Virus record (IMG/VR): IMGVR_UViG_3300035210_000132
Coordinates: 92,596 to 156,595 of that record
DNA length: 64,000 nucleotides
Strand: one strand, 5' to 3'
Source: a virus
Shown here: positions 23,145 to 23,419 of the stretch, piece after piece
Numbering within the stretch: position 1 is the first letter of the stretch
Layout of the letters: the number at the start of each line of letters is the position of its first letter
Program-made: the position numbers and the translations under genes
Notes under the pieces: generated by a model
Seen by the model: only the letters and a program-made list of their open reading frames with translations
Told to the model about the DNA's origin: nothing
Databases searched by the model: none

Positions 23145-23219
23145 GGCCCTAGAGTCTAACGGTTAGGACGTCGGCCTCTCACGCCGAAAGACCGGGTTCA
23201 ACTCCCGGTGGGGTCACCA
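23145..23219 (+). tRNA. tRNA-Glu(CTC) with encoded CCA. The terminal A of CCA is the A of the next ORF's ATG.
   Basis: Acceptor ggcccta/tggggtc (2 GU), D gtc/gac, anticodon loop ctCTCac, T ccggg-TTCAACT-cccgg, then 'a cca|tg'. Confidence 0.8.
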
Positions 23220-23419
23220 TGTCGCGCTTCAAAGAGCTCTCAGAAAAAGTTGGTACTCTTCCTCAAACACGACTCGCTACCATTGAAGGGGATACCCCAC
23301 CGCAAGGCGAGATAGCTCTCTGTGCTTGTTGCCATAAGAGGCCTGTCGCACCACCAGAAGATACCTGTGTGATGTGCACCATGGAACAGTTCTTCGAAAT
23401 GTGGAGTAATCCTTTATGA
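23219..23419 (+). CDS. hypothetical protein. Its start codon overlaps the tRNA-Glu CCA end.
   Basis: ATG at 23219 with no RBS (leaderless-type configuration). Confidence 0.4.
   Translation: MSRFKELSEKVGTLPQTRLATIEGDTPPQGEIALCACCHKRPVAPPEDTCVMCTMEQFFEMWSNPL

Follow-up and report, generated by a model that had tools for sequence, protein, structure and literature searches.

When the last nucleotide of a transfer RNA (tRNA) gene is also the first nucleotide of a start codon, is the arrangement a means of gene expression or a sign of tight packing, and how could one transcript serve both products? The question is raised by a 64,000-nucleotide (nt) stretch of DNA, here called the window, that covers positions 92,596 to 156,595 of the IMG/VR virus record IMGVR_UViG_3300035210_000132. 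The window, with a G+C content of 53-62 %, is best explained as containing a maximally compacted array of tRNA genes and open reading frames (ORFs) of a large uncultured phage. Between positions 18611 and 39889 lie 33 tRNA genes, on the + strand throughout and with small ORFs interspersed; 32 of them were found by ARAGORN, and one, tRNA(CAT), was added by Rfam. The 3' side of five of these tRNAs (Glu, CAT, Ser, Phe and Cys) directly abuts coding sequence, and in the first four of them the A of the ATG occupies tRNA position 76. These fusions are real and non-random. Whether they are put to use is a matter of evenly balanced judgement: cutting at the tRNA 3' end would yield leaderless or near-leaderless messenger RNAs (mRNAs) of the fused ORFs, with repair of the CCA end of the tRNA.

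A first-pass annotation of this DNA had claimed that the terminal A of an encoded CCA is the A of the next ATG at tRNA-Glu, tRNA(CAT) and tRNA-Ser. Read directly at positions 23219, 30174 and 37268, the junctions bear this out, with the sequences ...GGGGTCA-CCA-TG, ...TTCGCCA-CCA-TG and ...TCTTCCG-CCA-TG, respectively. The tRNAs that matter to the argument are the following.

22816 to 22890, + strand: tRNA-Cys(GCA), called by ARAGORN and Rfam, together with the 4 nt (C-TAG) before the next ATG
23145 to 23219, + strand: tRNA-Glu(CTC), called by ARAGORN, Rfam score 59.6 bits, 7/7 acceptor pairs, discriminator A23216, CCA at 23217-23219, ATG at 23219-23221
27011 to 27084, + strand: tRNA-Phe(GAA), without CCA, reading N73-C-T-ATG, with the A of the ATG (27084) at position 76
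29273 to 29351, + strand: tRNA-Arg(CCT), reading CGATG, with the ATG at position 76 and only 23 open codons behind it
30102 to 30174, + strand: tRNA(CAT) or tRNA-like element, discriminator A30171, encoded CCA, A76 at 30174 being the A of the ATG
33995 to 34104, + strand: tRNA-Leu(GAG), the internal control, CCA-encoding but separated from the ATG at 34102 by a 21-nt spacer in which GGGGG occurs
37182 to 37268, + strand: tRNA-Ser(TGA), type II, called by ARAGORN, 7/7 acceptor pairs, long variable arm, discriminator G37265, A76 at 37268

The three CCA junctions open frames of 66 (Glu), 70 (CAT) and 62 (Ser) codons, each from the first in-frame start after a stop, and the ORF list holds no earlier in-frame start upstream of the fused ATGs; ATG is the start codon in all five fused ORFs. 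The spacing given earlier for the ORFs behind tRNA-Phe (2 nt) and tRNA-Cys (4 nt) is correct, but tRNA-Phe is no looser a case than the others, as the A of its ATG stands at position 76 in the same register; the tRNA-Cys ATG lies 2 nt beyond the register of Glu, CAT, Ser and Phe. Equally sound was the statement that tRNA-Leu(GAG) encodes CCA but is separated from its ORF by a spacer, here found to be 21 nt long. Only four of the 33 tRNAs encode CCA at all, and the ATG at tRNA-Arg(CCT) is a chance-type occurrence. By cloverleaf and detector criteria, tRNA-Glu (23145-23219) and tRNA-Ser(TGA) (37182-37268) are canonical tRNA genes, the latter matched by Rfam only below threshold (30.5 bits, with the tRNA-Sec model). 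The earlier reading of tRNA(CAT) as a tRNA is retained with some reserve: it has canonical acceptor, anticodon and T arms and a minimum-free-energy fold that is cloverleaf-like (z = -3.45), but the D arm is truncated, with a D stem of about 2 pairs, the Rfam score is marginal (30.2 bits vs a threshold of 29) and ARAGORN makes no call at default settings.

Chance does not account for this register. An ATG at position 76 is found in 5/33 tRNAs (P = 1e-4, given a regional ATG frequency of 0.0144), and TG follows CCA in at least three of the four CCA-encoding tRNAs (P = 9e-4). Furthermore, of the five position-76 ATGs, four start open frames of at least 62 codons, vs 14/99 background frames behind tRNAs (P = 1.8e-3), and the joint probability of four such events is approximately 7e-7. 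As a baseline from outside the window, TG follows CCA in none of 128 distinct CCA-encoding tRNAs from newly fetched IMG/VR phage loci, the rate rising to no more than approximately 7 % once the approximately 10 loci already fetched by a scan for CCATG are counted.

The encoded CCA itself is a different matter. The association between encoded CCA and fusion, to which the first-pass annotation drew attention, is seen, but its direction is probably the reverse of that implied, the fused ATG supplying A76. C74 is present in all 33 array tRNAs, followed at position 75 by T in 15 of them and by C in 13, CCA occurs in just one of the 30 tRNAs outside the three fusions, and the enrichment of C75 among fused tRNAs is not significant (Fisher P = 0.28). 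Because C74 is universal, position 75 is mostly C or T and the ATG gives A76, the encoded CCA reads as incidental; it is most plausibly the sum of C74, C75 and the A that the fused ATG contributes, i.e. a by-product rather than a conserved CCA. The universal C74 was considered as a peculiarity of this phage and rejected as such, C74 being present in 77 % of CCA-less tRNAs from other sampled phage loci; its role may lie in the contact of RCCA with RNase P RNA (PMC11143913). The commonest triplet at positions 74-76 in the array is CTA, which occurs 10 times and often reads on as C-TAG or C-TAA.

The fused frames are named here by their first position and are described below, with lengths in amino acids (aa).

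22891 to 23142, + strand: ORF 22891, 83 aa, its start 4 nt beyond the tRNA-Cys discriminator and preceded by no Shine-Dalgarno (SD) sequence, its end 2 nt before tRNA-Glu, codon-usage likelihood ratio 6.6
23219 to 23419, + strand: ORF 23219, 66 aa, fused to tRNA-Glu, its end overlapped by the next ORF (23416) in an ATGA
27084 to 27377, + strand: ORF 27084, 97 aa, fused to tRNA-Phe, DUF1040-like
30174 to 30386, + strand: ORF 30174, 70 aa, zinc-ribbon-like (HxC...CPFCG), starting at the ATG fused to tRNA(CAT)
37268 to 37456, + strand: ORF 37268, 62 aa, Cys/His-rich, fused to tRNA-Ser

The best case is ORF 30174. An exhaustive HMMER search made for this ORF returned five homologues of 61-77 aa (E = 3e-8 to 7.5e-4), and in the alignment of the six sequences H28, C30, G45, W46, C60 and C63 are invariant and a C-terminal CPFCG is common. 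Five of the six, including that of the window, share an N-terminal M-x(0-3)-KGKG; the window protein starts M-KGKG, which argues that the fused ATG is the true start. Judged by this conservation, ORF 30174 is a genuine conserved protein gene with its start at the fused ATG, and the fusion of tRNA(CAT) with ORF 30174 is, as far as sequence comparison goes, solid. The ORF is also called as a gene in a Joint Genome Institute (JGI) contig and has a codon-usage likelihood ratio of 2.5. That contig (3.3 kb, 99.97 % identical) is the only other copy, so there is no population variation from which dN/dS could be calculated. Elsewhere, the homologues are located near DnaB, methylase or integrase genes and are started by coupling or an SD, none of them after tRNAs.

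ORF 27084 is probably also real, as a DUF1040-like protein starting at the ATG fused to tRNA-Phe. Its codon-usage likelihood ratio is 16, it matches Pfam DUF1040 with 27.1 bits, and it has a homologue in the huge phage LR756511 (5e-4). In addition, its DUF1040-like N-terminal motif is duplicated internally, residues 7-22 being repeated as residues 44-59 with conservative and synonymous changes; the two repeat units are located at 27102-27149 (NDKLLTMIRNYWKRHP) and 27213-27260 (IDRILSLVRDYWKEHP). Differences of this kind suggest that residues 7-22 are coding and that the N-terminus is under protein-level constraint, with the fused ATG as the start.

How such ORFs might be translated is made pressing by the habits of the other genes. 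Approximately 80 % of the 37 confident window genes have GGAG, AGGAG or GGAGG at proper spacing, and among the ORFs that follow tRNAs a class with an SD and an 11-24-nt spacer occurs behind Ile(TAT), Thr(GGT), Leu(CAG), Leu(TAA), Gln(CTG) and Leu(GAG), as opposed to the fused class without a GGAG-type SD behind Glu, CAT, Ser, Phe and Cys. Spacing in the window is therefore bimodal, either 0-4 nt without an SD or at least 11 nt with one, and since use of an SD is the rule in the window, its absence at the fused ORFs is meaningful. The predicted energy of the duplex with the anti-SD is 0.4 to -2.5 kcal/mol for the ORFs behind Ser and CAT and -4.1 to -6.3 kcal/mol for those behind Glu, Phe and Cys, as compared with -6 to -12 kcal/mol for typical genes, and the values for Glu, Phe and Cys come mostly from G-runs in the acceptor stem. 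The first-pass claim that no ribosome-binding site is present thus stands for tRNA(CAT) and tRNA-Ser but needs qualifying for tRNA-Glu, whose acceptor stem includes the weak G-run GGTGGGG (-6.3 kcal/mol). Each fused ATG is immediately preceded by the 3' strand of an acceptor stem that belongs to a stable cloverleaf; as long as the precursor is folded and unprocessed, a 30S subunit would presumably be unable to load at that point. A promoter/terminator scan detected no sigma-70-like promoter in or before these tRNAs and no enrichment of such sites in the array.

The pathway that would reconcile these features has four steps. The tRNA and ORF would be co-transcribed. A host tRNA 3'-end endonuclease of the ribonuclease (RNase) Z type would then cut at or just after the discriminator, and the released RNA, with a 5'-monophosphate and a leader of 0-2 nt (CCAUG or CUAUG; 4 nt in the case of Cys), would be translated in the leaderless mode. 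Finally, a CCA-adding enzyme, which is needed anyway by the other 29, CCA-less tRNAs, would complete the tRNA. Co-transcription, the site of cleavage, leaderless translation and CCA repair are what we infer from the layout of the locus, and repair is integral to the scheme because an A shared by tRNA and mRNA means that one transcript cannot give both a complete tRNA-CCA and an AUG-mRNA without it. In CCA-less precursors, the cut made by characterized RNase Z enzymes falls after the discriminator; archaeal enzymes cut after an encoded CCA, and the enzyme of Bacillus subtilis is inhibited approximately 1500-fold by CCA (PMC7479834). Hence, the earlier proposal of mRNAs starting exactly at AUG fares poorly, as it needs a cut between C75 and A76, unlike the characterized RNase Z sites (PMC7479834), and such an mRNA start is unlikely. 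Processing could give a 5' end of pCCAUG, which has a 2-nt leader, of pAUG, after an undescribed 75/76 cut, or of pUG, which leaves a dead ORF; or no cut might be made at all.

A number of observations weigh against tRNA processing as the source of these messages. Because CCA is an anti-determinant for RNase Z of the B. subtilis type and archaeal enzymes cut after it (PMC7479834), the three CCA junctions are those least expected to be cut as required. Over their first 36 nt, the fused ORFs show no less structure than other genes do. At the opposite ends of the tRNAs, the stop codons of several upstream ORFs lie inside the next tRNA, at positions 8-10; the strongly coding ORF at 20543-20890 has as its stop U8-A9-G10 of tRNA-Thr(TGT), and the same geometry recurs at tRNA-Asn, tRNA-Arg(ACG) and tRNA-Tyr. 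The open frames ending at these TAG triplets are 56-125 codons long (20881-20890, 22048-22057, 28324-28333 and 19030-19039). As stops inside the 5' part of a tRNA would be removed by RNase P cleavage, processing and translation are not everywhere compatible, and the 5'-end overlaps favour compaction or at least indicate that the array is not neatly designed. Moreover, 48 further window ORFs were searched and include no RNase Z, CCA-adding enzyme, initiation factor or ribosomal protein, and the matches of the GGDEF protein encoded in the array have 29-45 % identity and are scattered over many phyla, and so are uninformative as to the host, with its type of RNase Z and its capacity for leaderless translation. 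Compaction might then be all there is to the locus: the starts would have drifted against the tRNAs, tRNA maturation would compete with inefficient, SD-independent translation on uncut or unfolded precursors, and no leaderless mRNA would arise. Besides the stops within tRNA-Thr, tRNA-Asn, tRNA-Arg(ACG) and tRNA-Tyr, this account draws on the equally tight packing of SD-led ORFs behind tRNAs, the hindrance to RNase Z that CCA should pose exactly at these junctions (PMC7479834), and the mutual exclusion of both products that the shared A entails without repair. It is nonetheless judged unlikely, given that a folded acceptor stem abuts the AUG without an SD, that the phage otherwise relies on strong SDs and that a spacing of either fusion or at least 11 nt with an SD is unexpected under neutral drift.

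Doubt also attaches to the ORFs themselves. For ORF 27084, M38 behind AAGGAA offers an alternative start led by an SD. The coding status of ORF 37268 is equivocal, with a likelihood ratio of 1.5 and a G+C content at third codon positions (GC3) of 0.65, and ORF 23219 is the weakest candidate gene, of doubtful coding status, with a likelihood ratio of 0.22 and a GC3 of 0.43 vs a mean of 0.70 for confident genes. Neither of the two has homologues in word-indexed protein searches or in tblastn against phages, neither matches Pfam or PHROGs, and no product of exactly these sequences appears in the source annotation. The first-pass annotation had made conservation of the downstream ORFs a touchstone of its idea; ORF 30174 is conserved, but for ORFs 23219 and 37268 these searches gave no homologue. 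The pattern could thus be coincidental in part, ORF 30174 and perhaps ORF 27084 being genes and ORFs 23219 and 37268 chance frames in non-coding spacers, of which the array has others without evident coding (e.g. 19279-19859); the first-pass count of three occurrences would then be too high, with only one or two real fusions behind it. The single-sequence AlphaFold2 model of ORF 23219 is uninformative, with a pLDDT (predicted local distance difference test) score of 48, and tRNA-Arg(CCT) illustrates that an ATG can fall at position 76 with no ORF behind it. Yet an ATG at position 76 that opens at least 62 codons is expected at approximately 0.002 per tRNA, which makes two chance extras beside two real cases unlikely, and in both doubtful ORFs none of the six frames scores better than the fused one. 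The codon test is also low-powered in this array, where genes that are real by homology score low as well (NUDIX 3.7, GGDEF 2.1, ORF 30174 2.5), and the predicted fold of ORF 37268 is moderately confident (pLDDT 67, with residues 21-50 at 72-83). Partial coincidence is accordingly regarded as a doubtful explanation. Far less probable still is that the fused ORFs are read from primary leaderless transcripts, starting at the A of the ATG from a phage-specific promoter in the 3' half of the tRNA gene and independent of processing. Primary leaderless transcripts are common in some bacteria, making up 47 % of Deinococcus deserti mRNAs according to PMC4007540, but no TANNNT-like -10 element lies 7-12 nt upstream of any fused ATG, sigma-70-like sites are not enriched in the array, and the upstream sequences are constrained by tRNA structure and have no common motif beyond that.

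ORF 23219 has one further feature of its own. Its positions 23273-23341 share a weak PxGxIxxCxxCxKR motif with the ORF after tRNA-Leu(CAG) (34871-34939), with 9/23 identities and a pairwise E of 2e-5, and both ORFs may belong to a small zinc-finger family of paralogues in the array.

The layout is not confined to the window. IMG/VR was scanned with the pattern T-arm + 11 N + CCATG; short frames lie behind most of the matches listed, and a general enrichment of CCATG in phages was rejected, its frequency being close to chance expectation. Half of the position-76 ATGs elsewhere are CCA-T-G in which the G is the first base of the next tRNA. Other contigs offer unmistakable genes that start at A76 of tRNAs confirmed by ARAGORN. 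In the locus designated L098, a deoxynucleoside monophosphate (dNMP) kinase, with its AAA domain beginning at residue 4, starts at A76 of a tRNA-Thr, and in L147 a pyridoxal phosphate (PLP) decarboxylase starts at A76 of a tRNA-Arg. ThyX starts at A76 of a tRNA-Ser in L051, with an alternative, SD-led start at M11, and in L049 an ORF of 133 aa runs from A76 of a tRNA-Met, three ORFs abutting tRNAs in that contig. In L109 (IMGVR_UViG_3300015171_000002, 1699-3316), three ORFs of 134, 71 and 195 codons start from A76 in the form N73-C-T-ATG, behind tRNA-Met, tRNA-Cys and tRNA-Val, and one of them is a methylase with a DPPY motif. Among sampled phage tRNAs that are not followed by another tRNA, starts of long ORFs cluster at +3 to +6 and reappear from approximately +8 (CCA-encoding) or +12 (CCA-less). 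The first-pass view of the locus as mitochondrial-like and unusual for a phage is therefore upheld as regards tRNA-abutting ORFs, but its rarity is lessened by the same layout in unrelated IMG/VR contigs. A wider proposal, offered only tentatively and as somewhat improbable on present sequence comparisons, is that phages (those of the window, L109, L049, L098 and L147) use tRNA 3'-end processing to create SD-independent translation starts on mRNAs that have no leader or one of 2 nt, a CCA-adding enzyme restoring the shared nucleotides.

A DNA search among GenBank phages gave no near-identical match to the window. Additional features of the array and its surroundings are as follows.

18611 to 39889, + strand: the tRNA array, with 33 tRNAs as well as NUDIX, HNH and major-vault-protein (MVP)-like genes and one minus-strand GGDEF gene, as identified by Pfam and PHROGs matches
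23683 to 24129: NUDIX gene, downstream of ORF 23416
24537 to 25415, - strand: GGDEF diguanylate-cyclase gene (5e-33), inside the array, its 3' end abutting the 3' end of tRNA-Pro (24537)
30740 to 33361: MVP-like gene, the largest of the window, encoding 874 aa with an MVP shoulder domain (7e-28)
35490 to 36032: HNH endonuclease gene (9e-17), in the array directly after tRNA-Leu(CAA)
9361 to 9634: group I intron, Rfam 60 bits (gathering score 50), between or within ORFs 8886-9542 and 9620-10294
20264 to 20336: tRNA-like gene between two tRNA-Gln genes
37952 to 38050: tRNA-like element of 99 nt

In seven cases within the array, a tRNA is directly followed by another tRNA. The minus-strand GGDEF gene implies that the array is not a single uninterrupted + strand transcription unit, and the HNH gene recalls T4- and T5-like phages, whose tRNA regions harbour homing endonucleases. 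The MVP-like protein has its nearest database relatives in the uncultured huge phages LR756500, LR756501 and LR756503 (39-41 % identity) and is conserved at 39-61 % identity across many huge-phage and metagenome contigs. Its gene is in mid-array here, which is not so in its closest relatives. In a neighbourhood search of IMG/VR and metagenomes, in which the best matches were 49-61 % identical, the closest relatives (at least 46 % identity) had essentially tRNA-free surroundings, with one tRNA at one locus (L025), and the few more distant relatives with tRNA clusters had a different arrangement. The MVP-like gene was considered as a fifth fusion, its frame being open from tRNA-Leu(TAG), and rejected, as its start is the ATG at 30740 behind GGAGG. 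The tRNA-like gene at 20264-20336 has an 8-nt anticodon loop (ARAGORN anticodon 'attg') and scores below the Rfam tRNA gathering score; a tRNA that decodes quadruplets or suppresses frameshifts is one possible identity, a decayed copy of Gln another. ORF 20337, which follows it, was rejected as a fused ORF since it runs through tRNA-Gln(CTG). The element at 37952-38050 combines a good acceptor stem and T arm with two extra hairpins in the variable region, one of them T-arm-like (CCCGGTTCGATTCCGGG); it matches the Rfam tRNA-Sec model with 28.5 bits, below threshold, and is called by ARAGORN at a relaxed threshold only.

Should translation of the fused ORFs proceed from processed RNAs, the tRNA arrays of phages would serve as expression units as well as supply depots of tRNA. 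Cleavage by RNase Z or RNase P would set cistron boundaries and give rise to leaderless messages in an otherwise SD-reliant host, the expression of small genes would be coupled to tRNA maturation, and the locus would offer a natural system for the study of processing-made leaderless mRNAs with a 5'-monophosphate. The tRNA-punctuation principle would then extend beyond organelles, with a bacterial-virus counterpart of the mitochondrial form. The annotation of small genes next to tRNAs would change too, as gene callers tend to skip ORFs that lack an SD and overlap a tRNA; two of the three CCA-fused ORFs are absent from the record. Even under compaction alone, a one-nucleotide overlap asks which product receives the shared A.

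Among known systems, the closest parallel is mitochondrial. In animal mitochondrial DNA, RNase P and RNase Z excise tRNAs from polycistronic transcripts and thereby leave essentially leaderless mRNAs (PMC8601606, PMC4787750). As in that system, tRNAs of the window abut coding sequence (0-4 nt), and the start codon lies where the tRNA ends on its 3' side, with no SD; similarly, at the tRNA 5' boundary the stop of some upstream ORFs of the window is lost or shared, much like incomplete mitochondrial stops. However, the window case concerns four or five ORFs of one array rather than a general mode of expression, since approximately 80 % of the confident genes and at least six of the tRNA-following ORFs have a GGAG-type SD. 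It differs further in that the start codon overlaps an encoded position 76 and in that the enzymes would be bacterial. The human mitochondrial tRNA-Tyr and tRNA-Cys have a single nucleotide in common, which is repaired after processing (PMC4787750), and they provide, by analogy, a precedent for repair of a shared base. There, as in the window, one nucleotide is common to the 3' end of a tRNA and the downstream gene, and the truncated tRNA of the window would likewise be completed enzymatically. In the window, however, the partner is the start codon of an mRNA, and the shared base is A76, which a CCA-adding enzyme can restore, rather than the discriminator. Within the literature searched, tRNA punctuation is described for organelles only, and a full-text search that left subscription journals mostly outside its reach yielded no description of tRNA/start-codon fusions or of tRNA punctuation in phages.

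Plant mitochondrial t-elements are tRNA-like structures that act as mRNA processing signals. The tRNA(CAT) at 30102-30174 resembles them in that its D arm is truncated while the acceptor/T-arm minihelix, which RNase P and RNase Z recognize, is intact, but it has a normal CAT anticodon arm, is the only Met-type tRNA of the array and may simply be a functional tRNA. Among bacteria and their phages, the secG-leuU and metT operons of Escherichia coli give tRNA-mRNA and tRNA-tRNA co-transcripts that are processed by RNase P or RNase E (PMC2241853), and the dimeric tRNA precursors of phage T4 lack CCA (PMC11143913). The tRNAs and ORFs of the window are probably also joined in one transcript, its CCA-less tRNAs need 3' trimming and CCA addition, and C74 and C75 are available for the contact between RCCA and RNase P RNA. 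In contrast, the mRNA of the E. coli and T4 co-transcripts keeps its own leader and SD, and an overlap of start codon and tRNA is not described for them in the literature searched.

Finally, leaderless messages as such are familiar in bacteria and phages. That of lambda cI is the classic phage example. Leaderless mRNAs are also abundant in Deinococcus, according to PMC4007540. Like them, the fused ORFs have a predicted 5'-proximal AUG, no SD and, in all five cases, ATG rather than GTG or TTG as the start codon. The known bacterial leaderless mRNAs are mostly primary transcripts, whereas those of the window would have processed 5' ends with a monophosphate and probably a 2-nt leader.

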